Shown here piece by piece: positions 18,092-43,993 of a stretch of 52,258 nucleotides of DNA; the stretch's first letter is position 1, and each line of letters begins with the position of its first letter. The notes beneath the pieces are model-generated. The model did no database searches and was not told where the DNA came from. It saw only the letters and a list, made by a program, of their open reading frames with translations. The stretch lies in the IMG/VR virus record IMGVR_UViG_2721755660_000011; one strand, 5' to 3'. This DNA comes from a virus. Its lineage: Duplodnaviria; Heunggongvirae; Uroviricota; Caudoviricetes. The translations under genes were made by a program, and so were the position numbers.

Positions 18092-18098
18092 ATCGTCC

Positions 18099-19434: not shown

Positions 19435-19445
19435 AGCGCCTCCCG

Positions 19446-19841: not shown

Positions 19842-19882
19842 GGACTCCTCCACAGAGAGAAAATGGCCCCGAAGGGCCATGA

Positions 19883-20908: not shown

Positions 20909-20963
20909 AAAAAAATCCCGTAAAAAAAGCCGCACAGGCGGCCTTTAGTGATGAAGGGTAAAG

Positions 20964-21296: not shown

Positions 21297-21305
21297 AAAC
21301 ATCCC

Positions 21306-22605: not shown

Positions 22606-22625
<20 letters not shown>
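21306..22625 (-). CDS. C: Head maturation protease / scaffold C (with nested Nu3)
   Basis: Matches lambda gpC from (V)TAELRNLPHIASMAFNEPLMLEPAYARVFF; GTG start at 22625 gives 439 aa; ORF track extends further upstream to 22772. Confidence 0.85.
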
Positions 22626-26306
<3,681 letters not shown>

Positions 26307-26332
<26 letters not shown>

Positions 26333-26852
26333 TCAGCAACCCCGGTATCAGTTCATCCAGCGCGGCTGCTTTGTTCATGGCTTTGATGATATCCCGTTTC
26401 AGGAAATCAACATGTCGGTTTTCCAGTTCCGGAAAACGCCGCTGCACCGACAGGGGGATCCCGTCGAGAATACTGGCAATTTCACCTGCGATCCGCGACA
26501 GCACGAAAGTACAGAATGCGGTTTCCACCACTTCAGCGGAGTCTCTGGCATTTTTCAGCTCCTGTGCGTCGGCCTGTGCACGCGTAAGTCGATGGCGTTC
26601 GTACTCAATAGTCCCTGGCTGGAGATCTGTCTCGCTGGCCTGCCGCAGTTCTTCAACTTCCCGGCGCAGCTTTTCGTTCTCAATTTCAGCATCCCTTTCG
26701 GCATACCATTTTATGACGGCGGCAGAATCATAAAGCACCTCATTACCCTTGCCACCGCCTCGCAGAACGGGCATTCCCTGTTCCTGCCAGTTCTGAATGG
26801 TACGGATACTCGCACCGAAAATGTCAGCCAGCTGCTTTTTGTTGACTTCCAT
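26307..26852 (-). CDS. nu1: Terminase small subunit Nu1
   Basis: 181 aa, MEVNKKQLADIFGASIRTIQNWQEQGMPVLRGGGKGNEVLYDSAAVIKWY matches lambda gpNu1; sequence GAATGAACAATGGAAGTCAAC at the start matches the lambda Nu1 start region. Confidence 0.95.
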
Positions 26853-26891
26853 TGTTCATTCGTAAGCGGCTCGCCAGAACCGTATTGATAT

Positions 26892-28463: not shown

Positions 28464-28482
28464 ATCCTCACTTTACATCGGG

Positions 28483-28830
28483 TTATATGCGGATTCCAGC
28501 GCGTTCCGTTCGTTTCGGGTGCTTCCAGTTGATGCCCTCAAGAAGCATGGACAACTGAGCCGGAGTAAGGTGAACCTTTCCATCGCGGGTGACCGGCCAG
28601 ACGAAGCGGCCCCGCTCCAGGCGTTTGGTGAAGAGGCACAGTCCGTCGCTGTCAGCCCACAACACTTTTATCTGGTCACCCCGGCGTCCGCGGAAGATGA
28701 ACAGATGCCCGGAGAACGGGTCATCCTTCAGGACGTTCTGAACTTTTGATGCCAGGCCGTTAAAACCATTTCGCATGTCGGTGATACCGGCAACCAGCCA
28801 GATACGTGAACCGGCAGGGAGAGATATCAT
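28483..28830 (-). CDS. IS66-family accessory protein TnpB
   Basis: 115 aa, MISLPAGSRIWLVAGITDMRNGFNGL... typical IS66 orfB product. Confidence 0.85.
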   Translation of the reverse strand: MISLPAGSRIWLVAGITDMRNGFNGLASKVQNVLKDDPFSGHLFIFRGRRGDQIKVLWADSDGLCLFTKRLERGRFVWPVTRDGKVHLTPAQLSMLLEGINWKHPKRTERAGIRI

Positions 28831-29480
28831 CAGTGGCTGCTCCCTTTCATTTCGCGGATAAGTGTCTGTAATAACGCCGGTGTCAGTTCACCTTTCAGCC
28901 TGAGAGTTCCGGCCGGCAGAACCAGCTCGCAGCACAGACTGTCTGGCAGTGTATTTATCTGTTCAGGTATCTGCACTGGTGCCGGGATTTTATTATCCGG
29001 CTCCGGAGTTAACGTCACGGGAAGTAGCGATGTTTCATGTTCGCCGGGCGGCTGCAGGCCGCCGTTACGCCAGAGATGCCGCCAGTTAAAGAGCAGGTTA
29101 TCGTTGATTCCGTTCTCACGAGCTATTTGTGCGACACAGGCACCGGGTAAAAGAGTCCGCTGAACAAGTCTCCATTTAAACTCCGGTGAAAATCGGTTCC
29201 GGCGGGGTTTCTCTGCTTTCACAGGCTGAGTCACGGTCGGGGTTGAAGGATATCGCCCCGGGAAAAGAGCCCGGGCCAGTTGCCCGCAGGAATATTCACC
29301 GGAAAGGGGCCAGTCAGTGAATACCTGGTGAAATCGCCTCACCAGAGAAAAAATGGCGGTTTTGCTGACACCAGTCTGCGCAGAAATGCGCGGGTACGAC
29401 AGTGACTCGTCAAATCTCAGCTGTAGCACACGCAGGATCAATTCCGGATTATCTGCCAATACCGCCTTTCGTGCATTCAT
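28830..29480 (-). CDS. IS66-family accessory protein TnpA
   Basis: 216 aa, HTH-containing IS66 orfA-like protein; start-overlaps tnpB stop. Confidence 0.75.
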   Translation of the reverse strand: MNARKAVLADNPELILRVLQLRFDESLSYPRISAQTGVSKTAIFSLVRRFHQVFTDWPLSGEYSCGQLARALFPGRYPSTPTVTQPVKAEKPRRNRFSPEFKWRLVQRTLLPGACVAQIARENGINDNLLFNWRHLWRNGGLQPPGEHETSLLPVTLTPEPDNKIPAPVQIPEQINTLPDSLCCELVLPAGTLRLKGELTPALLQTLIREMKGSSH

Positions 29481-30253
29481 CTTAAATGTCCTTTTACTGC
29501 GAAAATGGACATTAGTATCGGAAACAGGAAAGGGAGGCGAAAGACGGTTTAAATGATGCGCTTACACAATAATAATCTTCTACCCTTATCAGTACCTTTA
29601 CTGCTGTGCTCCAACACAGCAGTTTTTTTGATTATGCTCACATATTTTTCATCCCCACCGCACTGCACATTATAACTGTTGCTTTTCAATTCAGGCTTTG
29701 TGCAGGTATGTCTGAATCTCCTCCGGGAGAGGTCTTCATCGTTATCAGCCCCAAAACACACCAGCGACACTGACAAAGAGCCTGCGAGTGCAGTTGCCCC
29801 GTTTTCGTTTTATGATGTATTCACCCAGTCAAATAATGAGCAAATTCAATCCATGTCAGACGGCAGAGAATCATAAAATTTAACCATCGTGCTTACATAA
29901 ACAATCCGATAAAGACTTAACATACTTAAAATCGCATATTGCATAAGAATAAATAATAAGTCATCAAAAAACATCGGGCAAAACTACCGCAACTCCAGTT
30001 AAAAAGACAATATATTAATCCAGCGACCTCATTTATTATTCAGAAATGCTTAATAATAAGATATTTCCTGTTATTCCTTTATGGAGATCGGGTAACGGCT
30101 CCATGCCAGTCTTGTTGAATGGCTCAAAAAATAAGAGAATAATTCATAACATATATTGTAATTCAGGCTCGGTTATTTCGAATTGAATACTTGCATTAAA
30201 ATCTGATAAAAAATTCGTCATAACAACAACATTCTCTTCTGCATGTGCCATAA

Positions 30254-30283
30254 CCTGCCGTAACAACCCGGCAGGTTTTTTTA
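30254..30283 (+). terminator. Rho-independent terminator in AT-rich spacer between IS66 element and Rz
   Basis: 7 bp GC-rich stem cctgccg / cggcagg with 8 nt loop followed by seven T (30276..30282) on plus strand. Confidence 0.55.
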
Positions 30284-30482
30284 TTGAATAAATTTCCGGT
30301 TTCTTCCACCATCGCACCGGCCAGGCGACTATGAGGGGACAACGCCGCGCTCCGTTAACGCAGTAAACCCCGGTGTGTATCGTTTTTGATTATCCCCGCA
30401 CACTCGCGCAGAGGAGTCTCCCCGTAGGGCTGCGGTCTCTGTTAATGCGGAAATACGGCGACGATACAACGCATTGAAAAAA

Positions 30483-30965
30483 CTATTTCAGGCACTGAGT
30501 ACGGATATATTCCTGAAGCGTTCTCAATGCTGCCTGGTCGCTGATGATTCCGTCTCTGATACCGAGAACGTTTCGTCCAGCAACTGGAGAGAGTTCGACG
30601 CTGGCATCATTGCCCACGCGGGCGGTGGCGGTGGCTTCACGCACGGAGCCTGGACAGGTGGCGTTGATCCGCAGGCGCTTACGACCAGCGGTAACATCAG
30701 CACGCAGAGTTTCATTTTCAGCTCTCGCATCGGCTAATTCCCTCGAGTATTTTGCATCGAGCGCAGCAACATCGTGCTGGCGCTGCTGCATGTCAGCGAT
30801 GGTGGCGGTCGCCTGCTTCAGCTCACTGACTTTTTTATCACGCTGTTCTTTGTAGGCGATGGCGTTATCACGGTAATGATTGACCGCCCACGACAGGCAG
30901 ACGATGATGCAGATAACCAGAGCATAAATAATCGCGGCGACTCTGCTCACTGATCTATCCCCCAA
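30483..30965 (-). CDS. Rz: Spanin inner membrane subunit Rz
   Basis: 160 aa ORF; matches lambda Rz / DLP12 RzpD ([26 protein letters not shown]...); true start may be the GTG at codon 6. Confidence 0.85.
30524..30730 (-). CDS. Rz1: Spanin outer membrane lipoprotein Rz1 (embedded in Rz, +1 frame)
   Basis: 68 aa; lipobox LVVSAC; proline-rich (PPPPPAW) like lambda Rz1; wholly inside Rz in another frame. Confidence 0.75.
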
Positions 30966-31480
30966 CAGGCTAATGCGCTTTCCTGGTCACGACGAATAAC
31001 CTGTCCATAGCAGTTATTTGAACGTATGCGGCAATCGCGCCCACCATCTTTTATCCACCAGCGAATCGCCTCGCATGCACCCTTACGATCACCGGCATTC
31101 AGCCGCTTATAAAACGTCGACGGGAAACACTTACCGGGGCCAATGTTATAGGGACAAAATGACGCTATACCCGCTTTCTGTGGTTCGGTCAGTGGTACTT
31201 TAATATTGCGTTCCACCCATGCCAGCGCCTTATCACGTTCAATAGCGTTAACCTGGTCGCATTTTTCCTTCGACAGCTTCATTCCCGGTATGACGGGCTT
31301 ACCATCCACCATTGTGGCACCACGACAGATGGTCCATATACCGGAACCATCGCGGTATGCCGTAGTGTGGTTACCCTCTTTTTCATCCAGAAACTGGTCA
31401 AGTATTTGAGGAGCAGACGCGCCTGCAGCAATCAGCGCCAGAACGGCAGCCGACAGGCCGTATCTGATTTTTGCGTTCAT
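30947..31480 (-). CDS. R: Endolysin (lysozyme, signal-anchor-release type)
   Basis: 177 aa; matches my recollection of DLP12 RrrD lysozyme ([43 protein letters not shown]...); N-terminal hydrophobic SAR-like segment. Confidence 0.85.
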
Positions 31481-31543
31481 GGATATTTATCAGGATTTAT
31501 CGGTTTCTGCCCACGGACAGGTTTATCTGTTCCGGTCAGTGGC

Positions 31544-31894
31544 TTAAGGTTGTGATTCCGGAGGAGTCTTCAGAGAACCAGTAATTCTTCCTGGTAGCTC
31601 TCCTTTGTAGGTTATCCACACATTCTGCGCCTCTAAAATTACGGGGCGCTTTTCCGGCGACTGCTCATCCCCTTCACATAACCCGGCAGCAACATCCAGG
31701 AAGACCTGTCTGATGCGCCTTCTGGCTGCTGCTTCATAAAACTCCAGCGCGGCACCTTCAACACGGTCCAGCGAGATGTCCAGGTCAAAAATTTCACCGT
31801 CAAAGCGTTTTTTGTCCCGTAACGCTAAAGTTACCGTAACTTTATTCTCAAAATTGCGGATCCCTTTCACAATCAGTTCATAGTTTTGAGTCAT
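31544..31894 (-). CDS. Hypothetical protein between holin and endolysin (YdfR-like position)
   Basis: 116 aa ORF between S and R, a position occupied by ydfR in the K-12 Qin prophage lysis cassette; family assignment is by position and size only. Confidence 0.4.
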   Translation of the reverse strand: MTQNYELIVKGIRNFENKVTVTLALRDKKRFDGEIFDLDISLDRVEGAALEFYEAAARRRIRQVFLDVAAGLCEGDEQSPEKRPVILEAQNVWITYKGELPGRITGSLKTPPESQP

Positions 31895-31898
31895 TGAA

Positions 31899-32114
31899 TT
31901 ACTCTCCCCGTGCAGCCTTACGCTTGTCTTCTCTGATTTTGAAGTACAGATTTGTCAGATAAGTCAGGAAGCCCAGAACCAGACTCCCCAGTACACCAAT
32001 CGCAGCCCACTGTGACGGACTGACCTGATCAAGCCACTGTAAAAACCAGTAGCCAGCACTGCCTGCGGAGGTGCCGTAGGCAATGCCCGTTGAAATTTTG
32101 TCCATGGATTTCAT
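31899..32114 (-). CDS. S: Holin (phage 21 S / DLP12 EssD-like) with dual-start motif
   Basis: [71 protein letters not shown] matches phage 21 S holin; Met1/Met4 dual start typical of antiholin/holin. The longer ORF to 32192 probably overcalls the start. Confidence 0.85.
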
Positions 32115-32225
32115 AACCCCCACCTCGCAGATGCGGGCGTTGTGTAATGGAAACAAAAAAGGCCACCAGCGGCCCGTAAAAACAACACCCAATCAAAGGC
32201 ACCCGCAGATGCCTTTTGCGTGGTG

Positions 32226-32378
32226 TTATTCAGATTTGCGCAGTAAAGGCCGGAGCACGACCAGCACCATCACCACCAGCACACCATCTGCCAGTACCGA
32301 CATCAGCCGTCCGGTAAAATCCACCACCACTACCAGAAACAGCAGGATGGCAGCCAGCACAAGGCGCGCACTTTTCAC
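32226..32378 (-). CDS. Putative small hydrophobic membrane peptide (50 aa, GTG start)
   Basis: Hand translation on minus strand: VKSARLVLAAILLFLVVVVDFTGRLMSVLADGVLVVMVLVVLRPLLRKSE; GTG start overlaps the stop of the upstream 141 aa ORF in a GTGA arrangement. Not in the ORF track (under 60 aa). Confidence 0.3.
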   Translation of the reverse strand: MKSARLVLAAILLFLVVVVDFTGRLMSVLADGVLVVMVLVVLRPLLRKSE

Positions 32379-32800
32379 AGGTACTGCTCCAGTGGTAGCT
32401 GCAGCGCCTGAGCAATTTTCTTCAGTTGCGCTTCTTCATCCGGGCCAATGCCGTCCTGGTCAGCGATATCCAGACACAGGCACAGCACATTAACTGCGTC
32501 ATCAGTACCGGCAACATCAGCCAGCTGACGAAGGGCTTCAGCATTGGCAGAGCGCGGCGACGCTTCATAACGGGCGCGGATATTTGCACTCATTTGTGCA
32601 ATCTCACCGGAGAACGGCGCAAAGGCAGGAAGTGCTGCAATGGTTTTCTCCAGTACCGCGATTTCTTTCGCGTCACAGGTGTCGTCAGCGTATGCAATGG
32701 AATACGCACCCCAGACGGTCGCCTCCACTGCGTCGCGGTTCTCCATCTTCTTCACTTCGGTAATGGCCTTGCGAGTTTTCTTTTTGAAAATACCAAACAT
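32375..32800 (-). CDS. Hypothetical acidic alpha-helical protein (cargo at stx-equivalent position)
   Basis: 141 aa ORF downstream of the phage tRNA cluster and upstream of the holin; composition Ala/Glu/Asp-rich; possible TerB-like fold is a guess only. Confidence 0.5.
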   Translation of the reverse strand: MFGIFKKKTRKAITEVKKMENRDAVEATVWGAYSIAYADDTCDAKEIAVLEKTIAALPAFAPFSGEIAQMSANIRARYEASPRSANAEALRQLADVAGTDDAVNVLCLCLDIADQDGIGPDEEAQLKKIAQALQLPLEQYL

Positions 32801-32974
32801 CGTGACTTTTCCTTTTAGTGGGTGAGCCTGCGCCCGGGGGTGACCAGCCCACAGAGAAAGTCACACTGACCATCCCGTAAGCTCACCCCTGAAAGGCTCT
32901 GTGGTTTTTGATATGCGCCGGGCGTGGCGCGGATACAAAAAAGGCCCGCCAAAGCGAGCCGGGAAAAATAAGTC

Positions 32975-33051
32975 TGGCGCGTTGTACTGGATTCGAACCA
33001 GTGACCGATTGCTTAGAAGGCAATTGCTCTGTCCGACTGAGCTAACAACGC
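32975..33051 (-). tRNA. tRNA-Arg (anticodon UCU), phage-encoded (argO/argN-like)
   Basis: Reverse complement GCGTTGTTAGCTCAGTCGGACAGAGCAATTGCCTTCTAAGCAATCGGTCACTGGTTCGAATCCAGTACAACGCGCCA folds as canonical cloverleaf; anticodon loop CTTCTAA. Confidence 0.8.
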
Positions 33052-33064
33052 ATGATGCAGATAA

Positions 33065-33145
33065 TGGACCGCCATCGAGGACTCGAACCCCGCACCAACA
33101 ACCCTGTTATCGTGTCGTCTGCTCTTCCTGATGAGCTAATGGCGG
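33065..33145 (-). tRNA. tRNA-like gene with noncanonical anticodon arm (possible argN-like or pseudo-tRNA)
   Basis: Reverse complement has a good acceptor stem (CCGCCAT / ATGGCGG), D-arm (GCTC...GAGC), T-arm (CGGGG TTCGAGT CCTCG) and CCA, but I could not fold a standard 5 bp / 7 nt anticodon arm by hand; 81 nt. Confidence 0.4.
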
Positions 33146-33152
33146 TATGTTA

Positions 33153-33228
33153 TGGTGGCCCTTGCTGGATTTGAACCAGCGACCTGGCGATTATGAGTCG
33201 CTCGCTCTCACCACTGAGCTAAAGGGCC
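33153..33228 (-). tRNA. tRNA-Ile2-like (anticodon CAU), phage-encoded (ileZ-like)
   Basis: Reverse complement GGCCCTTTAGCTCAGTGGTGAGAGCGAGCGACTCATAATCGCCAGGTCGCTGGTTCAAATCCAGCAAGGGCCACCA closely resembles E. coli ileX-type tRNA; anticodon loop CTCATAA. Confidence 0.8.
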
Positions 33229-33268
33229 GGGCGCAGGATAATAACGGTACATAACTAATTCTGCAATA

Positions 33269-34327
33269 TCATCCGTTCTGACTGACTAAATCCTGAACTT
33301 CCTTGACCGTCTGCTCAAAACGCTCAGTCTCCAGCTCAACGCCAATTGCACGACGTCCCAGCGCCATCGCTGCTTTGACCGTCGAACCCGACCCCATGAA
33401 AAAATCTGCAACCAGATCTCCCGGACGACTGCTTGCGCTGATTATCTGCTGCAACATTTCTGCCGGTTTTTCGCACGGATGTTTCCCGGGATAGTACTGC
33501 ACCGGTTTATGCATCCACACATCGGTGTACGGCACCTGCACAGTCACACCGAAATACCGCCGCAAATTTTTATATTCTCTCAGCAGTTCCGTATACTGCC
33601 GGTTCAGTTCACTGTATGTGCTGACCAGCTGGTGGTGTGGCTGCTCCAGTTCACCGCGCTGATGTTTTTCTGCTGCAACACGCGCAAACAACGCCTGCAA
33701 TTTGTTGTAATCAGCTTCGTTCGGTAACTGCCACTGACTGGTACCAAACCAGTGCGAAGCCATGTTTTTCTTTCCGGTGGCTTCCGCTATCTGTTTTGAC
33801 GTTATTCCCAGTTCGGCACGAGCATCCCTGAAATACGATATCAGCGGTGCCATTATGTGCTGTTTGAGTTCCCTTTCTTTTGCCGCATAGCCGTCACTTT
33901 TGCCGCGATATGGCCCCTGGTAATGTTCAGCAAACAGAACGCGCTCTGTGGCAGGAAAATATGCGCGCAGACTTTCTTTATTACACCCATTCCAACGTCC
34001 AGACGGCTTCGCCCAGATGATATGGTTAAGCACGTTGAAACGTTCACGCATCATGATCTCAATATCAGATGCCAGGCGATGCCCACAGAACAGGTAAAGG
34101 CTTCCGGCAGGTTTCAACACCCGCCAGAACTGGGCCAGACAGTGGTCCAGCCACTTAAGATAATCTTCGTCCCCTTTCCACTGATTGTCCCAACCGTTGG
34201 GTTTCACCTTGAAGTAAGGCGGATCGGTAACAATCAGGTCAATGGAATCATCAGGCAGGGACTGAATAAAATGCAGGCAATCAGCGTTGATTAAATCAAC
34301 ACTGTTTATTTTTACAGTATTTTTCAT
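33269..34327 (-). CDS. DNA methyltransferase (amino-MTase, likely N6-adenine or N4-cytosine), apparently orphan
   Basis: 352 aa; motif IV DPPY near N-terminus (LIVTDPPYF) and motif I FxGxG near C-terminus (DFFMGSGSTVKAA); no adjacent restriction endonuclease ORF. Confidence 0.8.
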   Translation of the reverse strand: MKNTVKINSVDLINADCLHFIQSLPDDSIDLIVTDPPYFKVKPNGWDNQWKGDEDYLKWLDHCLAQFWRVLKPAGSLYLFCGHRLASDIEIMMRERFNVLNHIIWAKPSGRWNGCNKESLRAYFPATERVLFAEHYQGPYRGKSDGYAAKERELKQHIMAPLISYFRDARAELGITSKQIAEATGKKNMASHWFGTSQWQLPNEADYNKLQALFARVAAEKHQRGELEQPHHQLVSTYSELNRQYTELLREYKNLRRYFGVTVQVPYTDVWMHKPVQYYPGKHPCEKPAEMLQQIISASSRPGDLVADFFMGSGSTVKAAMALGRRAIGVELETERFEQTVKEVQDLVSQNG

Positions 34328-34477
34328 GGATCAGTAAGCGTAACTCTGGTAGGCTCACTCTGCTTTTGCGCTAAAGCAGTGGGCCGTGGTTCGCTTGTGA
34401 CCAGTAAGCATGAGCGAATGGCTGGCAGGTGCTACCAACACCCACCAGCCGCCCATTTTCACAGCAGGAAACCGCCA

Positions 34478-34765
34478 TTACTGGCAGCGTCTGAATTTAT
34501 TCCCGTACCCGCCGTTATCCTTCGCCAGACCCGCCAGAACTAACTGAGTCAGTATTAACTGGCACCGGACTTCGCTTACTCCGGTAGTTCTCGTCATCAT
34601 GCGTGGCGTTACCCACTTGTCAGCAGGTAAGAAATGAAGGACTGCGGCGGCGGTTTCTGTCATATCTTGCTGTTTTAGCATGTTTTTTCCCTTCTGGTTA
34701 ACATGACATACCAATAACTCTTGTCTAAAAAGCCAGCAAGATAAAAAGTCAGTATTCACGACCAC
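34478..34765 (-). CDS. Hypothetical protein, first ORF downstream of putative late terminator
   Basis: 95 aa ORF; real start may be the internal Met at about 34681 (MLKQQDMTETAAAV...). Confidence 0.35.
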   Translation of the reverse strand: MVVNTDFLSCWLFRQELLVCHVNQKGKNMLKQQDMTETAAAVLHFLPADKWVTPRMMTRTTGVSEVRCQLILTQLVLAGLAKDNGGYGNKFRRCQ

Positions 34766-34801
34766 CAGCGTGTTTACTGTACTGCACCAAGTTTACAGGT
34801 A

Positions 34802-34820
34802 CAAAAAAACCGCTCAGCGG
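34802..34820 (-). terminator. Candidate tR'-like terminator (short GC hairpin followed by T-run on minus strand)
   Basis: Minus-strand sequence CCGCTGAGCGG followed by seven to eight T; located between Q region and the late genes, as tR' is in lambda. Stem is only 4 bp, so weak. Confidence 0.35.
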
Positions 34821-34950
34821 CGGGTTTAAGTTGTGTGGCGAAGTAACCACTCTTAACAGCATATTTGATTTTTTACGATTGTAAACGGTTGATTATTCAT
34901 CTCCAATAAAAATAATTGTGTAGGTATGCCCTTAACAATGGATAAGAAAC

Positions 34951-35397
34951 ATGAATAAAATGACTGTATTATTACTTAGCGCAACTATCATTTCAGGTTG
35001 TACTTCTTCCGTACCATTGATAAAGAAAACTCAATCAGGAAAACCTGAGGGGGTTTATCAAAATACGACAAAAGATAAAGTCAAAGATGCCCTTGTGAAT
35101 TACTGCAATAGTAGAGGGTTGATAATTTACAACGCGGATAACAGCAGTGTTATATGTGGTAAAGAACTGGAAGGCGGGTCTGCTGTTTTTGGACAAATGT
35201 TAATCGGCAATGCCTATTCAACAACCCCGGTATCAAAAGTCAGATTTACTATCGCTCAAGTTAATAACGATACAAAAGTGTGGGCCGATATGTGGATGGA
35301 AACTCAAATGGCAATGGGGCAAGTACAACAAATGGCTATAACAGACAACGCAAGCAAAAACACTATCCAACAACGTCTTGATGAATTAAAACCTTAA
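34951..35397 (+). CDS. Lipoprotein (moron), opposite strand to flanking phage genes
   Basis: 148 aa; signal peptide with lipobox IISGC (MNKMTVLLLSATIISGCTSS); AT-rich flanks; sits between Q and the late operon on the opposite strand. Confidence 0.6.
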   Translation: MNKMTVLLLSATIISGCTSSVPLIKKTQSGKPEGVYQNTTKDKVKDALVNYCNSRGLIIYNADNSSVICGKELEGGSAVFGQMLIGNAYSTTPVSKVRFTIAQVNNDTKVWADMWMETQMAMGQVQQMAITDNASKNTIQQRLDELKP

Positions 35398-35417
35398 GTA
35401 AATTAATTAAATAAAAT

Positions 35418-35440
35418 GGGGAGAAATAAATCGACTCCCC
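35418..35440. terminator. Hairpin between convergent lipoprotein gene and Q (likely terminator for minus-strand early transcript)
   Basis: ggggag ... ctcccc inverted repeat with 11 nt loop; T-rich on the minus-strand downstream side. Confidence 0.45.
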
Positions 35441-35482
35441 ACACATTAAACTGATTCAATTACCCCCTCAATAAGAGGTCTT

Positions 35483-35848
35483 CTAACGATCCATCTCTAG
35501 CTCAATTTCTAACATCATTAACATGCCATCAACTACACCTTCAGCCTTTTGCAATAAACGCCCAACCCAGCAATCAGAACGCCCATGTTTACGGGCAAGC
35601 GCCATAAACGTCATACCACCTACATAATAATCCACTAATAAATCGTGCAAATCGCTGTTGTTCTTTTTCAGGCGAGCCATGCACCCACAAATGATCATCG
35701 CGTCATCGTCACAACATTGCGGGCGGGATTTTACTTTTGAAGGGATTAGTCCTTTAAATCCTGCAGCAATAGACGACCAGGTGACATCCTCGTGATTATT
35801 TGCCACCCATGCCCCCCAACGTTCAAGAACCATTTGAATATCACGCAT
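35483..35848 (-). CDS. Q: Late gene antiterminator Q (QuuD-like)
   Basis: [74 protein letters not shown] matches my recollection of DLP12 QuuD; start placed at internal Met of ORF 35483..35863. Confidence 0.8.
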
Positions 35849-35865
35849 CAACTTTCTCCACAAAA

Positions 35866-36855
35866 TCAGGCCAGAACGCCAATTGCCAGCGCACGATCGA
35901 TAAAACGAAATATCAGCTCCAGCTGGGAGCCATACTTCTCTTCAAATGCCACGGTATCCGCATGCAGCTCGTCGTGATGCTTTCTGCACAAAGGCAACAC
36001 AAAAAGGTCATGCGCTTTTGTTCCCATTCCACCCTGACCGTGACCTATCAGGTGGTGGGGATCATCAGCAGGCTTTCCACAACATGCACACGGCTGTGTC
36101 TTAACCCAGCGCGTGTACTTTTCATTAACCCAGCGGCGACGTTTGGGGCGTAACATAAAAGACTCCGGCGACTCCGGATCCACTTTCAGCGCCAGCACCT
36201 TTTTCGCTTTATCCTGGATGATGCTGGTGGCAGGAACCGAAGGCACAAGGTCACACTCCCGGGTGACAGACGGCACAACAGGCGTCGGTAATCTCAGTGC
36301 CTTACGGGCTGCACTTTCCGGTAAGGCATCCGCCAGGTCATTACGAGCCAGCCACCAGCATAGTTCCGGCATTGTCACAACGTGACTGTCATCAAAACCG
36401 AGATCCCGACGCACGACAGATAACACCCACCGGGCACAGTTATCCGTTGCCATTGATTCCAGCCGTTCCGTGAACTGATCGCGCAGCTGGTTATCGCAGT
36501 GCCAGCACAGACGGATTGCGCCCGGAGCGTGTCGCATTGTGGTCATATTCTCGCTGTGCCAGTCGGAATGAGGCCACTGGCAGCCTTTTTCACGAAGTAA
36601 CCAGCGTTCAAGACATTCCACGCCACCAGCACGACGGATTACCGCCTCATTGCGGAACATAGCCCGAACGGCAGGATCATCCGCCAGCGGTTGTGATGCC
36701 GCCGGAACGGCACCACTGGCAAAAGATGAATAACGTTCCGGCTCAGGCTCCAGCAGGACACGCCCCTGCATAAACAGGGGCATCAGTTCTGAACCGGGTC
36801 TGAACAATACGATCCCCATACGTGGGGCAATTTCAGGGGTCAGTAGTGCTCTCAA
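35866..36855 (-). CDS. DUF968-like phage protein (YdfU-like), Cys/His-rich C-terminus
   Basis: 329 aa; adjacent to Q as ydfU is adjacent to quuQ in Qin; C-terminal C..CC and HH..H..GG motifs suggest metal-binding, possibly HNH-like. Confidence 0.5.
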
Positions 36856-36864
36856 CGTAGAACC

Positions 36865-37380
36865 TCACAGCACAATCTGTTTCAGTTTCTGTACCGCTTT
36901 CCCCATATCCGCCATAGCATCAACAAACTCATCAAATTTACGACTTGCCATTCCATACGCCTGGAGGATTTCCAGTTTCAGAGGATCCAGTTGCTTTTTA
37001 ATTTCCGCACGATCATTAAATTTCTTCTCTGCTTCTTCCGCAGCCCTGATCAGCTCCTCAGCATGCCTGCGTAATTCATCCGGAGTAACGGTCTTTTTAA
37101 TCACAACGGGTTCCTCTGTTTTTACTGGTATTTCACTATTTACTGCCTGATGTCCAAATTTAGGATGATGTAACGTTGTAGTTCTTCCATCATTCACAAC
37201 GACCAGAAGTCCACTGTCGCGGATAATGCCAATGAGTATCTCCTTATCCCTTTTATTCAGCAGACTGTACGCCTGCACTTTCTGTGATATCTGGGTCAGT
37301 GTTGCGCCTTCCGGCATTCGTTCAACAAAACGTTTAACCCTGGATAAAACTGGCTGCAGATGGGGTGGTGTAATTCTCAT
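36865..37380 (-). CDS. Hypothetical protein (N-terminal winged-helix-like, C-terminal coiled coil)
   Basis: 171 aa ORF in nin-like region; no confident family. Confidence 0.4.
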   Translation of the reverse strand: MRITPPHLQPVLSRVKRFVERMPEGATLTQISQKVQAYSLLNKRDKEILIGIIRDSGLLVVVNDGRTTTLHHPKFGHQAVNSEIPVKTEEPVVIKKTVTPDELRRHAEELIRAAEEAEKKFNDRAEIKKQLDPLKLEILQAYGMASRKFDEFVDAMADMGKAVQKLKQIVL

Positions 37381-37395
37381 GCTCCACGCCTCCCA

Positions 37396-38307
37396 TCAGT
37401 GAACGGTATCGAGCAGCTTTAACAGCTCAGGGAATCGGGATTCGAAGAAATGCGGCTGCGTCTCGCGCGGATTTGCAGGACTGGTGATGTTCTTGCCGAA
37501 CATGCAGCCTTTCGCCGTCAGCGACCAGAATTTTTTGATGTTGTTAATCGCGGTACGGCTGTATCGTTCGCGTTGTTCAACGATCCCCAGCTTCGCCATC
37601 TGGTGATATGCCTGATTAGCCGTCAGGCGGATACCATACTGCTTCAGCAGTGCACTCAGCGACAGCGTAGGGCGGCTTGAACCATCTGGCGCATCAGCAG
37701 GTGCATCAATGGCATAGATCGGCATAAGTTCAGGAAGACCTGCTACCTTTGATAATTTCTGGTATGCACCAAGTTTCGAGGAGTTTGACAGATTTAGAGT
37801 CTTTGCTGCTGATTCAAGCAGAATGACCCCGGATTTAATTTTGTCGGATGTGGTTTCTTCTGGTGATGAATTATGAAGCGCATCAAAAGTACGTATCACT
37901 TTTAAGCTGAATGCCGGGCTGATCCACATTGCATATGCATAGACCAGCTCTTTACAGACATACGTCCCACCATTGCGCCCCTGAATGGTGATGACAGGAA
38001 TACTACGGGAATCTCCCGTAGTTTCTTCTTCCAGTAATTCCACAAGAGCCTTCGTTTCAGGACGACGCATAAACTCGTGAACTTCCAGCGAACGGGAGGA
38101 GCGATTCTCACCAGCGGCAAGAAGAGCAGCTTTCTGAAGGTCGTTAAGACAGTAGTTAGATTCAAAGTACTGGCGCACAGAAACGCCATCAATTACAAGC
38201 AACTGATTCATTGGTTTCTCCACAAATTTCGGGACTGCACTCCCTTTTCGTTGATGCAAGATGAACTTACTGCGATTTTTAATAGTTATCAAGGATACAC
38301 TGTTCAT
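37396..38307 (-). CDS. KilA-N domain-containing protein (putative antirepressor-like)
   Basis: 303 aa; segment NQLLVIDGVSVRQYFESNYCLNDLQKAALLAAGE resembles KilA-N domains; start could be internal Met at about 38211. Confidence 0.5.
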   Translation of the reverse strand: MNSVSLITIKNRSKFILHQRKGSAVPKFVEKPMNQLLVIDGVSVRQYFESNYCLNDLQKAALLAAGENRSSRSLEVHEFMRRPETKALVELLEEETTGDSRSIPVITIQGRNGGTYVCKELVYAYAMWISPAFSLKVIRTFDALHNSSPEETTSDKIKSGVILLESAAKTLNLSNSSKLGAYQKLSKVAGLPELMPIYAIDAPADAPDGSSRPTLSLSALLKQYGIRLTANQAYHQMAKLGIVEQRERYSRTAINNIKKFWSLTAKGCMFGKNITSPANPRETQPHFFESRFPELLKLLDTVH

Positions 38308-38480
38308 AAATACAGTATCTTTAACGAGGTAATACCCAAATTTAGGGTGTTGCTCAATTCCGTTACCGAGTTGCTAATTTGCAACTCGCTTTTTCGTACT
38401 TACTGATAGTGATCTCGACCTTACCTTCCGGGATAACCGGTCCCCACTCCACCAGCATTCTTTTCACCTGTCTGTCGTCT

Positions 38481-38490
38481 TCCCACACCC
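38481..38490. repeat. IS186 target site duplication, left copy (tcccacaccc)
   Basis: Identical 10 bp tcccacaccc flanks both ends of the IS186 element. Confidence 0.75.
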
Positions 38491-39829
38491 CATAAGCGCT
38501 AACTTAAGGGTTGAACCATCTGAAGAATGCGACGCCTCGGTGCCTCGTTAAGACGATGCCTCGCGTTCTTCAATTGCGTTTTGTAGGCTGTCAGGGATAC
38601 TGTCCCACGAATGGCCACCTGTAAGCTCCAGATGACCATTTTTGTTATTCTCCACAACGAGTTAGTTCTTCTTTTCGGATCCGGCACTTCTGGGGGGGAA
38701 ATCCAGCGATGGCTGGATTATGTCGTCAATTAAAAATGCGGCGAGTAGATTAGCAAATATCCACGCTTTCGCGAGTTCAGGTTCCTTTGCACGCAAAGCA
38801 TCCAGGTGCAGCAAACTTTTGAGCCGCTTAAAAGCCAGTTCAATTTGCCATCGCAGACGGTAACAATCAGCCACTTGCTCTGCTGAATATTCATCTTCCG
38901 GTAATGATGTTAGCAATAGCACATGGCCCGCTGCTTCCAGCGTTTCCGCCTGAACTACTCGTCCTTTTCGACGATTCTCGCTGAGCAGTCGGGTTTTACT
39001 GATTAATGCTTTTTCGGGAGGAAGTGATACGGCAATGAGACGTGCCGGAAAGGGAGCTCCGGCTTTTTTATTACCTGAATTGCCTATCATTACAGTGGTT
39101 TCACCGTTCTTACCGCAATCCAGCCCGCGCAGAAAACCCATCATGTCAAAGCGCATTCCTTCTGCAGTTAACCAGCGCAATCCTCGCCAGTGAACCCGGA
39201 CGATATAATCAGCTTCTCCAAAAGCAAGTGAGCGGATACATTCGGGACGCGAACCGAATCCCCGGTCAGCAATGCGTATCTCGTCTGCCGTTTGCGCAAA
39301 TCGGTCCAGCCGTTCAGCGTCTCTGCTGTCGGTTAGCTCAAAATCAGTGAACTGACAGGTATGAGGATCATATCCCATATGTAGTCGCCATTCAGCGCTG
39401 CCGCCCCCGGGCGCACTGATTGCTGTTCCATCGACAAGACGCAATCTCTTTCCGCTTGTACAACCCGTAACTGCGGCGCGTACAGCAAGTGTTTGTGCGG
39501 CAAGTATGCCAAACCAGTCGGCGGCATTCCGCAGCCGCTTCAGGAGAGCCACGTCAGATAATGTTGCAACGTCATGGAGCTGAGCCCATGCAGTGACTTC
39601 ACGTAATGACATCCCCCCGGGGCCGTAAGCCAGCCCCAGACGTAGCAGAGTTGCAGCATCACGAATTTCGCGGCGGCGGGTTAGAGCCCCGGCATTACGT
39701 GCCGAAGTATCCAGTTCTTCGGGCTTACCAATATGGGCCAGAATTGCTGACCAGTTATCGTGAGAGTAATTCATCGGCACGTTAAATCATATCAGGCGTA
39801 ATACCACAACCCTTAAGTTAGCGCTTATG
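38491..39829 (-). mobile_element. IS186 insertion sequence
   Basis: Terminal inverted repeats cataagcgctaacttaagggttg (38491..38513) and its reverse complement (39808..39829); 1339 bp; single transposase ORF; flanked by 10 bp direct repeat. Confidence 0.9.
38662..39780 (-). CDS. IS186 (IS4-family) transposase
   Basis: 372 aa ORF (MNYSHDNWSAILAHIGKPEELDTSARNAGALTRRREIRDAATLLRLGLAYG...) matches my recollection of IS186 transposase. Confidence 0.9.
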   Translation of the reverse strand: MPMNYSHDNWSAILAHIGKPEELDTSARNAGALTRRREIRDAATLLRLGLAYGPGGMSLREVTAWAQLHDVATLSDVALLKRLRNAADWFGILAAQTLAVRAAVTGCTSGKRLRLVDGTAISAPGGGSAEWRLHMGYDPHTCQFTDFELTDSRDAERLDRFAQTADEIRIADRGFGSRPECIRSLAFGEADYIVRVHWRGLRWLTAEGMRFDMMGFLRGLDCGKNGETTVMIGNSGNKKAGAPFPARLIAVSLPPEKALISKTRLLSENRRKGRVVQAETLEAAGHVLLLTSLPEDEYSAEQVADCYRLRWQIELAFKRLKSLLHLDALRAKEPELAKAWIFANLLAAFLIDDIIQPSLDFPPRSAGSEKKN

Positions 39830-39839
39830 TCCCACACCC
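39830..39839. repeat. IS186 target site duplication, right copy (tcccacaccc)
   Basis: See left copy. Confidence 0.75.
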
Positions 39840-40103
39840 CCGCGTGGGTCAGGGCGTCAAACAGCGCCTTGTTATAGTTGTCCAGATCGCGGATCCGGTT
39901 ATCCGGAGGAAACAACACGATCTCCACTGAAGCAGGTGCCGACGTTGGTTTCGGCAGACGACGTAACTGCTCAACTATTGCTGCGCACGCCGCGCTCTGG
40001 AATTTTCGCCCCGCCGCGCTTATCAGGCTCTTACCAGCAAACGCCCCTTTGTTGGGGTGTCGCCAGTACGTGTTCACGCTGGGCGGGAAAGGCAGTATTA
40101 GCT

Positions 40104-40463
40104 TCATACTTTCAGGCCCCTCTCATGTAACCAGTGGGTTGCACGCAGCCTGGCGTTTTCCTCACCGGCAAGCAGTGAGCGGATAATCCCGACCGCCTCG
40201 CTGTCGTCGTCCTTCACCGCGGTATGAAGCGTTATCCCCCGGGCCACACCACGCTTTATCGTGATGACGCCTTTTTTCTCCAGTGCGCGAAGATGCTCCA
40301 CCGCTGCATTCACTGAACGGTATCCCAGCATGGTTGCCACCTCCTGATTGGTTGGCGGGAAGCCACGTTCTTTCTGGTAAGAAATCAGCATATCCAGCAC
40401 CTGCTGCTGGCATTGAGTTAACGTCGTCATTAAGCCCCCACGTAATTGCCTGACAGATACCAC
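40104..40463 (-). CDS. LexA-N-terminal-like winged-helix DNA-binding protein
   Basis: 119 aa; segment QQQVLDMLISYQKERGFPPTNQEVATMLGYRSVNAAVEHLRALEKKGVI resembles the LexA DNA-binding domain; no peptidase domain. Confidence 0.5.
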   Translation of the reverse strand: MVSVRQLRGGLMTTLTQCQQQVLDMLISYQKERGFPPTNQEVATMLGYRSVNAAVEHLRALEKKGVITIKRGVARGITLHTAVKDDDSEAVGIIRSLLAGEENARLRATHWLHERGLKV

Positions 40464-40918
40464 TCTTCACCCGATGCAGCGCGCTTGCTGCTTTTCCGTA
40501 AGCACCGCTCACGACGCGCCAGAAAATTGTTTCGTTCTGGCTTGGAGTGGCTTTCACGGAATGCCGCCATCCACACGGTTGCAGCACGACGAAATAAGCC
40601 CCTGGACTCCAGTTCTTCCGCCTGGCGGGTCAGGCACAAAATCACCCGTGGATCGTTAGTGCCGACATAGAAATTGCGCACAGGTCTGGTTTCACGAACT
40701 GGTTGTGGTTCCGGCTCCTGCGCTCTCTCAGTCAGGCGTGGGAAATGTCTGCGTGTATCTCCTTCACAACGGTGAGCCACACGCCCACTCTGACGTAACT
40801 TGCTTGCTGACTGCAGAACGCGCTGTCGTGAGTAACCAGCAAAAGCATCCGCAATGTCTCCTGAAGTACACCCCGGATGGGCTTCAATGAATTTCTGAAC
40901 TTCATTCAAAAGACTCAT
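40430..40918 (-). CDS. Hypothetical regulator with PerC-like C-terminal motif
   Basis: 162 aa; C-terminal segment AEELESRGLFRRAATVWMAAF resembles the conserved PerC/Pch-family motif as I recall it; N-terminal winged-helix-like region. Low-confidence family call. Confidence 0.35.
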   Translation of the reverse strand: MSLLNEVQKFIEAHPGCTSGDIADAFAGYSRQRVLQSASKLRQSGRVAHRCEGDTRRHFPRLTERAQEPEPQPVRETRPVRNFYVGTNDPRVILCLTRQAEELESRGLFRRAATVWMAAFRESHSKPERNNFLARRERCLRKSSKRAASGEEWYLSGNYVGA

Positions 40919-41739
40919 AATCCCCCCCTGAATCCTGCCGGGATCTGGCTGTAGTCCACGTTGTCGTAACTGGCTTTGAAGTACGGGTCCTCGCGTCTGG
41001 CTGCAGATACCGCAGGAACTTCCCAGGATTCTTCGAAATGACGATCCGGACCAAAGAACGTGACAGCCTGTTTCACAAATTGTGTGCCGCTGTTACCCAT
41101 CGCAGATACCCAGCCCGCGTAGCGTTTCACACCTTCCAGCATGGTTTCGGGGTTTACCCCCTCATTCAAACGGGCTTTCCAGGCTTTGAAGGCTGCAGAT
41201 TTTGAATTGCCACCAGCACGTTTGGGATAGGCCAGCCATGCCTGCTCAAACTCCGGAGAGTATTCCGGTCGGTTTGAACGAACTCGCACAGACTCATCAG
41301 CAGATGCACCAACAGCTATTGGTTCATTGACTGGTTCTTTGACTGGTTCAAAAGAGTGACTGGTTCTGGGTGAATCTCCTGCACTACCCCCTGGTGCAAC
41401 TCCTGCACTACCTGGTGAATTTGCTGCACCAGATAGTGAATTATTTGCACTACCCCCTAGTGAATCTCCTGCACCATCAAGATGAAGGAGATAGATATTA
41501 CTTGAGTTACCTTTTTCACCTTTCCGGGTGACTTTTTTTACCAGCCCAGACTCACAAAGGGCCGCAATATGATTCATCACAGAACGTTTGCTAATCTCGC
41601 ACTGGTCAGCAATATGCTGGTAGCTGGGCCAGCACTCCCCCTGATCGCTGGCATTATCAGCCAGCTTGATCAGAACCAGTTTTCGCAATGGATTACCCAC
41701 TCGAATTTTCATCGCTTTAACCATCAGCTCCATACTCAT
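40915..41739 (-). CDS. Replication initiator (O-like, HTH N-terminus, internal repeat array)
   Basis: 274 aa; N-terminal HTH; central Gly/Ser/Ala-rich linker encoded by DNA repeats; position downstream of cro/cII-like genes matches lambda O. Confidence 0.6.
   Translation of the reverse strand: MSMELMVKAMKIRVGNPLRKLVLIKLADNASDQGECWPSYQHIADQCEISKRSVMNHIAALCESGLVKKVTRKGEKGNSSNIYLLHLDGAGDSLGGSANNSLSGAANSPGSAGVAPGGSAGDSPRTSHSFEPVKEPVNEPIAVGASADESVRVRSNRPEYSPEFEQAWLAYPKRAGGNSKSAAFKAWKARLNEGVNPETMLEGVKRYAGWVSAMGNSGTQFVKQAVTFFGPDRHFEESWEVPAVSAARREDPYFKASYDNVDYSQIPAGFRGGL
41369..41476. repeat. Iteron-like direct repeats inside replication initiator gene (putative ori)
   Basis: Four to five copies of a roughly 20-24 bp motif (tgcactacc...gtgaat...) e.g. 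gtgaatctcctgcac at 41369 and 41459, ctgcactacc repeated three times. Confidence 0.55.
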
Positions 41740-41960
41740 GCTGCACCTCCGAGATGCTTCATGTTTTTTCCGGAGCGAAAGGCTATAAGCGGCATACTGA
41801 CGCGGTAATTACGGCCCAGCGGTTCACAAATCACCTTCTGACATTCACGGTCAACCAGGCTAACACGTAGAACATGCCCTGCTGGCGTGGTGTACCACTG
41901 ACCGGGGAGAGGACAACGGAAAGTCTGATTGGTAAATCGTTTGAAAATATTCCGGATCAT
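41736..41960 (-). CDS. Hypothetical small protein (74 aa)
   Basis: ORF with ATGA start/stop overlaps to both neighbours (translational coupling). Confidence 0.4.
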   Translation of the reverse strand: MIRNIFKRFTNQTFRCPLPGQWYTTPAGHVLRVSLVDRECQKVICEPLGRNYRVSMPLIAFRSGKNMKHLGGAA

Positions 41961-43120
41961 TTACGCCCCCTTACCTCTGAAGAGTTCAGCGACGAATGAA
42001 TAAGACGGGCAAGAAATGCCGCATCGTTAATTCGGTCATACAGACTTACAGCCAGCGGTGATTCAGCTTTTTCCAGCATGGGATAAAGCTGCTGCAACCA
42101 GACCTGATGAATTGATGAAATGTAGGAATAGAGTACGCTGGCGTTATGTGCAACGTCGCTCGGTACAGCGGGCTTTGAAAGCTGTTTCTCCATCTGGTTA
42201 AAGGCATTGATGTATGCCTCCTTGAACTGGGCTGCACGTTTGCCAGTGAAGCCCATTGCCAAGAACGCGAAGCCGTCGCGGGTGATGTGGTAGCAAGGAA
42301 GTTTGCGAGTACCGCCGTTGGGCTGGTGTACCAAAATTGATGTCTCCGCAAAATTGCGGGCACAAAACTCTGGAGAACAATCCAAAATGCGGATCTTTTT
42401 CAGAACATCGTCATGACGTTTAGAGAAGAAGTCAGCAACAGCCAAAGAAGATGTAACAGCCTGACCATCAACGATGGCAATTTCAGGTTGAGAGAGGGTT
42501 GGGAGAGTAGTCATGGTGACAGCCCCGGTAGTCAGTTTTTCAGAAAACTCACCACATGGGACGCCAATCACAGAGGTGGTGAGACGTACAGGGTTGGCGT
42601 TACCGGAGACTACCGAACCCGGCCCGACCGAAGTCGGCCCTGTACGCCCCACCATAATTTGGGCGTAGCAATGCTCATGACACGAAAAAACCGCATGAGC
42701 GCGGTTATGCTCAGTAATCAATTTCAGGACGCCAATCCCGGCACCCGTTTTATAAGGTGCCTGAACAGTGTAACGTCCCGGAATGGCAGAATCAATGTGC
42801 TGGTGGTCCTTCACACTCAACAAAATCACGCCTGAATTTCCACAAAGGACTAAAGCACTCATGCGGGTAGTCTTTGCGAAGATAGATAACGCGCTGTGTA
42901 TCTGGTTCCCAACGAATAACATGGACATAAAGCCCTCTTCCGTCACGAAACCAGCGGTTAAGTTCCTGCACAACTCGCCCCCCACAGTCAGGTAAAGTTC
43001 TCTGTGGTTACTTACAGCCAGGTGATTTGGTAATCTGCATTCATGCCGTAACAACAGGAGTTCAGCGACGCTGACCACCAGCTGTTGCGACAAACGGTTA
43101 TTTGCCGTTAAACTGTTCAT
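41957..43120 (-). CDS. Rha-family (ORF6N domain) phage regulatory protein with unusual ~200 aa N-terminal extension
   Basis: 387 aa; residues from about 205 (EIAIVDGQAVTSSLAVADFFSKRHDDVLKKIRILD...) resemble Rha domain; ATG at 43120 overlaps upstream stop as ATGA, supporting the long form. Confidence 0.5.
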   Translation of the reverse strand: MNSLTANNRLSQQLVVSVAELLLLRHECRLPNHLAVSNHRELYLTVGGELCRNLTAGFVTEEGFMSMLFVGNQIHSALSIFAKTTRMSALVLCGNSGVILLSVKDHQHIDSAIPGRYTVQAPYKTGAGIGVLKLITEHNRAHAVFSCHEHCYAQIMVGRTGPTSVGPGSVVSGNANPVRLTTSVIGVPCGEFSEKLTTGAVTMTTLPTLSQPEIAIVDGQAVTSSLAVADFFSKRHDDVLKKIRILDCSPEFCARNFAETSILVHQPNGGTRKLPCYHITRDGFAFLAMGFTGKRAAQFKEAYINAFNQMEKQLSKPAVPSDVAHNASVLYSYISSIHQVWLQQLYPMLEKAESPLAVSLYDRINDAAFLARLIHSSLNSSEVRGRK

Positions 43121-43746
43121 GCGTTAGTTTCTCCACAGACACAAAACGCCACGACGCCCGGAGCTGCACACTCGCGGGCGTCACTCTTTTCTGGAGCGCA
43201 AAAGATTTTGTAGACCAGTGCTGCATGCTCCTGGAGCTTCGAAATTGACAGATACAACTCATCATTAATTGCTGTCTGCTCGTGTGGCTCCACTACCCCA
43301 TCTTCGATTGCCGAACGAATCTGCTTTGAGTAACTCCCGATCTGTTCGATGACTTCCAGCAGGCGCTGGTTTATATCGGCGTTCTCTACTTCCTCAATTT
43401 CAGGAAGCGATACGAACACCCCACCAGCAGACTGTGCGACAGCATCCGCAATGTAGTGAGTGCCAGCTGCGCGCTGTAAAACCATTGCCCATCCCAGCGG
43501 GAAAATCTGATCGCCATCGGCACGAAGGCGGTTAAATAATGCGTTCTCTGTTACATCCAGCCAGTCAGCAGCTTCAGCGTAACCACCCGGCAACGCCGCG
43601 ATAGTTTTTCTGACAGCTTTCACGTACCACTCAGGCTGTTTTTCTACTTTCCAGTGATGCTTACCCACGGTTAACTCCTCGTTTCTGTGGTTACGTTTAC
43701 GCAACTGAACCGCTAACTTTTGAATAGCACTCTGGTAATCCATCAT
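43117..43746 (-). CDS. CII-position regulatory protein (possibly YdaT-family)
   Basis: ORF directly downstream of cro; start uncertain (ORF track gives 43779; internal Met at 43746); family call by position. Confidence 0.35.
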   Translation of the reverse strand: MMDYQSAIQKLAVQLRKRNHRNEELTVGKHHWKVEKQPEWYVKAVRKTIAALPGGYAEAADWLDVTENALFNRLRADGDQIFPLGWAMVLQRAAGTHYIADAVAQSAGGVFVSLPEIEEVENADINQRLLEVIEQIGSYSKQIRSAIEDGVVEPHEQTAINDELYLSISKLQEHAALVYKIFCAPEKSDARECAAPGVVAFCVCGETNA

Positions 43747-43960
43747 TTGGATTTGGATAAATATCAGGACGCAGCTCATGGGGGGTTACGGACCAGTTCC
43801 CCAGCTCACAAAGTTGTAAAACTCGTTCCGACGGGACTTGATTGTTAATTACCCAATTAGCGACAGATTGAGTAGATTTAAAACCAAAGCGACGAGCTAC
43901 TTCAGATAAAGACTTTCCCGCAGCCTTTACTGCTTTCTCGGTGTAGTTTTGAGATGACAT
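43697..43960 (-). CDS. cro: Cro-like repressor (HTH)
   Basis: 87 aa HTH protein divergent from cI across an operator-containing intergenic region. Confidence 0.7.
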   Translation of the reverse strand: MSSQNYTEKAVKAAGKSLSEVARRFGFKSTQSVANWVINNQVPSERVLQLCELGNWSVTPHELRPDIYPNPNDGLPECYSKVSGSVA

Positions 43961-43993
43961 ATCTTTCTCCTCTGAAATCCAGAGGGGATAATG

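Follow-up and report, generated by a model that had tools for sequence, protein, structure and literature searches.

An IS186 insertion with a 10-bp target duplication in the rusA gene of an Escherichia coli prophage

The interrupted rusA gene and the inserted element

The window examined in the present study is the whole 52,258-nucleotide stretch of DNA deposited as IMG/VR record IMGVR_UViG_2721755660_000011, and all positions are counted from its first letter. A rusA gene of the prophage is interrupted by a complete insertion sequence, and the following features could be assigned at this locus:

38363-40107, minus strand: rusA, interrupted by IS186
39830-40107, minus strand: 5' part of rusA (nt 1-278, codons 1-92 plus 2 nt), the ATG of which overlaps the stop codon of the upstream LexA-like gene (ATGA)
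39787-40107, minus strand: truncated rusA'-IS fusion ORF of 106 aa, equal to WP_065225513.1
39830-39839: insL-proximal copy of the target-site duplication, TCCCACACCC (GGGTGTGGGA on the gene strand)
38491-39829, minus strand: IS186, 1339 bp, 100% identical to K-12 IS186A/B/C
38491-38513 and 39807-39829: 23-bp terminal inverted repeats of IS186
38662-39774, minus strand: insL transposase gene, intact, 370 aa, DDE_Tnp_1, co-oriented with rusA and the early-right operon of the phage
38481-38490: second copy of the target-site duplication, TCCCACACCC
38363-38480, minus strand: 3' part of rusA (nt 279-396, residues 93-131 and the stop codon), now untranslated

The inserted element is IS186 itself and no mere relative. 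Its alignment with the IS186A, IS186B and IS186C copies of K-12 MG1655 (NC_000913.3) revealed 0 differences in 1339 bp; it starts with CATAAGCGCTAACTTAAGGGTTG and ends with the exact reverse complement of CATAAGCGCTAACTTAAGGGTTG, with perfect 23-bp inverted repeats bounding a unit of about 1.34 kb. The single DDE transposase gene in this unit is intact, and its product, counted from the ATG, matched PF01609 (DDE_Tnp_1) with E=1.6e-26; in strain GB089 the same gene is annotated as WP_001300563.1. The K-12 copies, which PGAP places in the IS4-like element IS421/IS186B family (the label for IS186 copies being “IS4-like element IS186B/IS421 family transposase”), have the same 1339 bp, 23-bp inverted repeats, 370-aa InsL and 10-bp target duplication. 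The element is common in the species: near-full-length matches were detected by megablast in 2146 of 5426 complete E. coli genomes, at a median of three places per genome.

The direct repeats on either side of the element are both 10 bp long and perfect, in agreement with the target duplication of about 10-11 bp (a 6-7 bp core extended by 2 bp on each side) that characterizes IS186, and chance alone would place a 10-bp match exactly at both element boundaries with an expectation of about 4^-10. An earlier note on this DNA had reported an IS186 insertion inside a rusA homologue with an intact 10-bp duplication, and this description is correct to the base: the coordinates that it gave, 38363-40107, are exactly those of the stop and start of the interrupted gene.

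Excision in silico of IS186 together with one repeat copy restored an uninterrupted rusA ORF of 396 nt encoding 131 aa, in line with the earlier claim that the frame resumes across the element; when both repeat copies were kept, the frame was broken. Against the RusA profile PF05866 the reconstructed protein scored 55.4 bits (cut-off 22.8, E=1.3e-14), covering positions 1-123 of the 124 in the profile, and it also matched the E. coli RusA structures 1Q8R, 2H8C and 2H8E in the PDB (E=7e-18, residues 3-120, catalytic motifs aligned), although several gaps in the latter alignment mark the window and K-12 proteins as distant relatives only. In E. coli RusA, residues D70, D72, K76 and D90 are critical, and D91 forms part of the cation site (PMC1636454); D74, D76, K80 and D94/D95 of the reconstructed protein align with K-12 D70, D72, K76 and D90/D91, respectively.

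The insertion cuts through this set of residues. The fusion ORF consists of 92 RusA residues followed by 14 residues, DISANLRVVVLRLI, read from the IS end, and it stops 12 nt before the insL ATG. The resulting 106-aa product keeps D74, D76 and K80, while D94/D95 are encoded in the separated 3' part of rusA and are missing from it together with the rest of the C-terminal 39 residues. Judged from this residue equivalence, the interrupted RusA is predicted to be inactive, since D74/D76/K80 are split from D94/D95 and the C-terminal 39 residues are gone.

Empty site, distribution and age of the insertion

The predicted empty site was assembled by joining window positions 37400-38490 to 39840-40920 (2172 bp) and was searched against the 5426 complete E. 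coli genomes. E. coli N96, isolated from a Tibetan pig, matched over the 2172 bp in one piece with 100.0% identity; it carries a single copy of the 10-bp repeat, an annotated rusA of 396 nt (WP_032240286.1) and the same gene order. The N96 prophage occupies the same tRNA-Thr/proA attachment site as the window prophage and differs from it, outside the IS, by 5 SNPs over window positions 29566-50900 (about 20 kb), whereas the chromosomal proA beside the prophage differs at 76 positions, so that N96 presents a nearly identical prophage free of the IS in another host background. GB089 (ground beef) and OkiPb01715 (bovine faeces) matched the query with 100% identity in two pieces spread over 3521 bp, that is, the 2172-bp query plus a 1349-bp insert made up of IS186 and one repeat copy. 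Both flanks are collinear with the N96 allele and the direct repeats are identical; with a natural empty site that is 100% identical, the insertion is a simple one, as had been proposed earlier.

The window equals neither of these RefSeq genomes; its right half (27259-52258) is 100% identical to OkiPb01715 and differs from GB089 by 3 SNPs, and the left half is 99.7% identical to both. The early region shows 93-97% identity to its counterparts in phages 1720a-02 and mEp460 and in several Stx2a-converting phages. These phages and the N96 prophage share with the window the gene order Rha, replication/HTH, PerC, LexA-like, RusA, but rusA is uninterrupted in all of them, and in most of them a Dam methylase gene, absent from the window, separates the replication gene from the PerC gene.

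The target itself is atypical. Of 59 new IS186 insertions described, 52 were found in canonical 5'-GGGG(N6/N7)CCCC-3' sites and the other 7 were off by one or two bases (PMC5009759). The rusA target reads GGGG-GTGTGG-GAAG, and only one half of it, the insL-proximal GGGG, matches this motif; the three K-12 copies have GGGG(N6)CCCC targets, unlike the window copy with GAAG as its second half, and another copy, located within a group II intron gene, likewise lies in a canonical target. No canonical GGGG(N6/7)CCCC site is present anywhere in the window. The motif is a property of typical insertions and not of the IS186 element, and the identity of the element is unaffected by its absence here. The atypical target is thus a caveat, and nothing contradicts simple insertion; the rusA junction may be recorded as a documented IS186 insertion into a half-consensus target.

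The distribution of the insertion was followed with 140-bp probes spanning each IS186/rusA junction. Both probes were fully covered in only two of the 5426 complete E. coli genomes, GB089 and OkiPb01715. In a larger protein/contig collection the 106-aa fusion ORF, which is a unique signature of the junction, was present on 17 contigs, 15 of them longer than 1 Mb, with identical upstream genes in all 17. Additionally, in many draft assemblies the contig ends at a 92-aa RusA fragment, and 23 of the 24 such contigs read have the gene context of the window; a representative one (L011) stops at rusA nt 277, one base short of the junction. Such contig ends are explained by the breakage of short-read assemblies at a multi-copy IS.

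The same multi-copy nature of IS186 could raise the suspicion that the element was misplaced in rusA by the assembler, as repeats often cause misassembly. The identical junctions and target duplication are, however, found in the independent assemblies of GB089, OkiPb01715 and the 15 contigs above 1 Mb in length; another two, of 34-37 kb, extend 34-118 nt into the IS, and a 10-bp duplication is the mark of genuine transposition. We therefore assign next to no probability to an assembly artefact.

The contig ends could also be read as evidence for an IS186 hot spot at this position of rusA, hit independently many times, which would account for contigs ending at codons 90-96. Hundreds of contigs in the large collection, some of them from Salmonella, do carry RusA fragments of 90-96 aa at their ends, and one contig with a different prophage context including a Dam gene (L010) ends at nt 278. 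However, fragments of the 90-aa class break off at nt 269-271, around nt 270, where rusA has a G/T polymorphism. Of six such contigs shown, four end at 269, immediately ahead of the polymorphic base, and 269 is the end point of both contigs from one and the same assembly, which marks a fork in the assembly between co-resident prophages. In Salmonella, the 96-aa form is a complete ORF created by a CAG-to-TAG nonsense mutation at codon 97. In complete genomes both junctions occur twice only, in the same orientation and context, and a rusA site that matches the IS186 target consensus in just one half does not qualify as a hot spot either. Repeated independent insertion is thereby largely refuted and appears highly improbable, and only the 92-aa class, in the gene context of the window, fits the IS186 junction. 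At the same time, the constancy of orientation, junctions and gene context at a poor IS186 target points to one insertion event that was clonally inherited.

The suggestion of the earlier note that the insertion is probably recent can be upheld only in part. Decay is absent, as the repeats are perfect, the IS equals the K-12 copies and only 5 SNPs in about 20 kb separate the prophage from that of N96; but the insertion is not brand new, being common to GB089, OkiPb01715, the strain of the window and at least 17 contigs elsewhere. It is therefore young with respect to decay and older than the spread of the lineage sampled in beef and cattle.

Loss of cos and the position of IS186 in the early-right operon

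A second insertion sequence is present in the same prophage, and the genes on either side of rusA are arranged as follows:

26862-29565: IS66-family element
35483-35848, minus strand: gene for a Q-like late antiterminator, transcribed in the same direction and lying downstream of the insertion
35866-36855, minus strand: DUF968 gene
36865-37380, minus strand: 171-aa ORF
37396-38211, minus strand: kilA-N, the nearest gene downstream of IS186, which a polar effect would reach
40104-40430, minus strand: LexA-DNA-binding-domain gene, directly upstream of rusA
40430-40918, minus strand: PerC gene
40915-41739, minus strand: HTH/DnaD-like replication gene
41736-41960, minus strand: small ORF
41957-43120, minus strand: Rha gene
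43117-43668, minus strand: cII-like ymfL
43697-43960, minus strand: cro-like gene

The IS66-family element of GB089 is flanked by an 8-bp duplication, ACAATAAT, and N96 has the corresponding empty site. In the window, 711 bp beside this element are missing, and the same holds by coordinate arithmetic for OkiPb01715; the end of the window element lies 9 bp upstream of the Nu1 start codon. The missing 711-bp piece contains ylcI/ynfO and a lambda-type cos, and cosN, GGGCGGCGACCT, which is present in GB089 and N96, is absent from the whole window. The N96 prophage, for its part, is disabled by an IS66 element in its tape-measure gene. With cos lost via the deletion adjacent to the IS66-family element, the window prophage is defective and its DNA packaging is lost, whatever happens at rusA.

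IS186 separates the early-right promoter region from Q, and its insL gene reads in the sense direction; with this operon layout, polarity on the genes from kilA-N through Q is conceivable. The insertion could accordingly be regarded as mainly a regulatory lesion, in which Rho-dependent polarity would cut read-through to kilA-N, DUF968 and Q and so lock the prophage in, or in which phage read-through would drive insL. Several observations are compatible with such a reading: the genes from the cro-like gene to Q are all on the minus strand and close or overlapping, with the IS within this string in the same orientation; the insert adds 1.35 kb, and the untranslated RNA before kilA-N amounts to about 450 nt after insL against about 150 nt when rusA is uninterrupted; the minus strand from rusA to kilA-N shows no sigma-70-like promoter; the rusA' stop is only 12 nt from the insL ATG; and the allele persists in a dispersed lineage. 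Against it, the minus strand inside the IS holds no intrinsic terminator-like site of any quality, and a search in and after IS186 for intrinsic terminators or outward promoters yielded nothing usable on that strand, with hairpins on the plus strand only. Folding of the rusA'/insL junction RNA for fold-back occlusion of the insL start gave an ordinary structure (z=0.89). The persistence of the allele, moreover, needs no selection on Q expression, as the window prophage is already disabled by the loss of cos.

In classical lambda genetics, N-modified transcription overrides IS polarity, so the outcome in this operon would hinge on whether the phage has an antitermination system. No N-like protein was recognised with PHROGs among the immunity-region ORFs. 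Altogether, a mainly regulatory lesion seems to us unlikely.

The arrangement of a sense-oriented IS in the early-right operon with the insL ATG 12 nt past the rusA' stop suggests that induction might raise transposase production. In its most elaborate form, this idea would have SOS induction drive a burst of IS186 transposase by read-through and termination-reinitiation, with Q damped, IS mobility coupled to derepression and the prophage locked in the lineage, and with IS186 able to use a single GGGG flank; such a scenario must be considered decidedly speculative and quite improbable.

A single transposition event and its relation to known systems

The observations are best accounted for by a single IS186 transposition into the prophage rusA gene, yielding a RusA predicted to be inactive, with the allele vertically inherited since, and we consider this reading very probable. 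One copy of IS186 (IS4 family, DDE transposase InsL) would have entered the rusA coding sequence once, within the nin-like region of a lambdoid prophage located at tRNA-Thr (thrW) beside proA. The staggered cut would have generated the 10-bp duplication, GGGTGTGGGA on the gene strand, and RusA is split after codon 92, leaving the 106-aa product. Vertical transmission would then have carried the allele through a lineage associated with cattle and beef, and in some of its descendants IS186 has recombined homologously with other IS copies.

Every part of this case belongs to known kinds, and the insertion is an ordinary one that involves neither a new mechanism nor a new family. Loss of function by simple IS186 insertion is known from the hot spot at the lon promoter in E. 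coli B and K-12 derivatives (PMC3045373, PMC5009759); there, hits are repeated and in both orientations, whereas the rusA site shows one orientation, one context and a presence in 2 of 5426 complete genomes. The rus-1 and rus-2 mutations of the K-12 prophage DLP12 (PMC1636454) resemble the window in that an IS and a prophage rusA are involved. In those mutants, however, IS2 or IS10 lies upstream and switches on an intact quiescent rusA, while in the window IS186 interrupts the coding sequence and the enzyme is cut short. The earlier note was right that K-12 rusA is activated by upstream IS insertions (PMC1636454), but its view of IS activity at this locus as a recurring theme finds no support, the insertion being a single event at a non-canonical IS186 target that destroys the gene rather than activating it.

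Our literature search found no paper naming IS186 together with rusA, and the allele is already contained in public genomes, where it is annotated as a “RusA family” protein beside an IS421-family transposase. In annotation, both rusA fragments and also the 106-aa “RusA family” protein should be treated as one pseudogene interrupted by IS186, and the significance beyond that is small. The junction can be used as a clean clonal marker of the cattle- and beef-associated E. coli lineage.

Finally, IS186 in rusA, the loss of cos beside the IS66-family element and the IS186 recombinants in sister genomes together represent stepwise prophage decay by insertion sequences. In these sister genomes the left junction, rusA'-GGGTGTGGGA-IS186, is retained and the right flank is different. 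The right flank in two of them (L012 and L016) consists of GGGTAAAACC followed by cas3, an IS186-cas3 junction that occurs in 170 of the 5426 complete genomes, and both arrangements arose when two copies of IS186 underwent homologous recombination. In another (L014), IS186 is cut short by an IS66-family element.

Extent and spread of the prophage

The whole lambdoid prophage, of approximately 48 kb (about 2700..50900), is contained in the window together with its integration site and the chromosomal DNA adjoining it.

50815-50890: tRNA-Thr(CGT), prophage integration site
51005-52258: proA, chromosomal neighbour of the integration site
32975-33228: tRNA cluster, downstream of Q

Comparison with E. 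coli N96, which carries a near-identical prophage, revealed only 5 SNPs across ~20 kb of the half encoding early and lysis functions, and 76 differing sites in the chromosomal proA. This combination of a near-identical prophage with divergent proA sequences suggests that the prophage has recently moved horizontally between distantly related hosts. Mosaicism was greater in the structural half, at 95-98.5% identity.

The tRNA cluster consists of tRNA-Arg(TCT) and a CAT-anticodon tRNA, assigned to Ile by PGAP, which also annotates a "tRNA-OTHER" there; a DNA methyltransferase gene comes before the cluster. Stx-converting phages typically show this arrangement. In strain 08-00022, the same integration site is occupied by a related prophage that carries stx1a; the window itself contains no stx.

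Loss of cos beside the IS66-family element

Besides IS186, the prophage carries a second insertion sequence.

26862..29565: IS66-family element, with ends GTAAGCG.../...CGCTTAC

In the complete E. coli genome GB089, this element is flanked by an 8-bp duplication, ACAATAAT, and its empty site is present in N96. In the window, 711 bp adjoining the element are deleted (junction 26861/26862), and the Nu1 ATG therefore lies only 9 bp downstream of the IS end. The deleted piece contains ylcI/ynfO and the lambda-type cos (cosN GGGCGGCGACCT), and cosN is absent from the entire window. Since cos has been lost, the prophage is incapable of packaging its own DNA.

IS186 target sites and recombinants

The IS186 target in rusA (38481-38490 / 39830-39839 and flanks) is non-canonical, reading GGGG-GTGTGG-GAAG versus GGGG(N6/7)CCCC, and no canonical site occurs in the window, despite 297 GGGG or CCCC runs. 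In E. coli W5-6 (NZ_CP032992.1), IS186 lies within ltrA, the reverse-transcriptase gene of a group II intron, at the canonical target GGGGG-TATGGGC-CCCC; this copy surfaced in the rusA-junction searches because its flank resembles the rusA site along ~16 nt. IS186 in ltrA was also seen in many other genomes among the matches of these searches.

Two sister-genome contigs, L012 (3279-4617) and L016, retain the rusA-side junction, but beyond the other end of IS186 they continue with GGGTAAAACC and then cas3. The IS186-cas3 junction was found in 170 of the 5426 complete E. coli genomes searched, and the rusA'-IS186-cas3 arrangement indicates recombination between the rusA copy and a cas3-side copy of IS186. 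In a third such contig, L014, an IS66-family element cuts IS186 short.

The 3' end of rusA and other alleles

The final codons of rusA are overlapped by a feature on the opposite strand.

38367-38388, + strand: terminator-like hairpin with T-run, CGAGTTGCTAATTTGCAACTCG CTTTTTCG

Transcription antisense to the early operon would be halted at this predicted hairpin.

In Salmonella prophages, a closely related rusA is inactivated by a CAG-to-TAG change that creates a stop at codon 97 (L026:3001-3291, Logan SRR31094574), four codons beyond the window's IS186 site; this inactivation is independent of the IS186 insertion. Among rusA alleles, a synonymous G/T polymorphism (GGG/GGT, Gly90) is located at nt 270 of the gene (window 39838), and contigs of many draft assemblies end at nt 269-271, that is, at or no more than 2 bases from this polymorphism, which helps the interpretation of "partial RusA" records.
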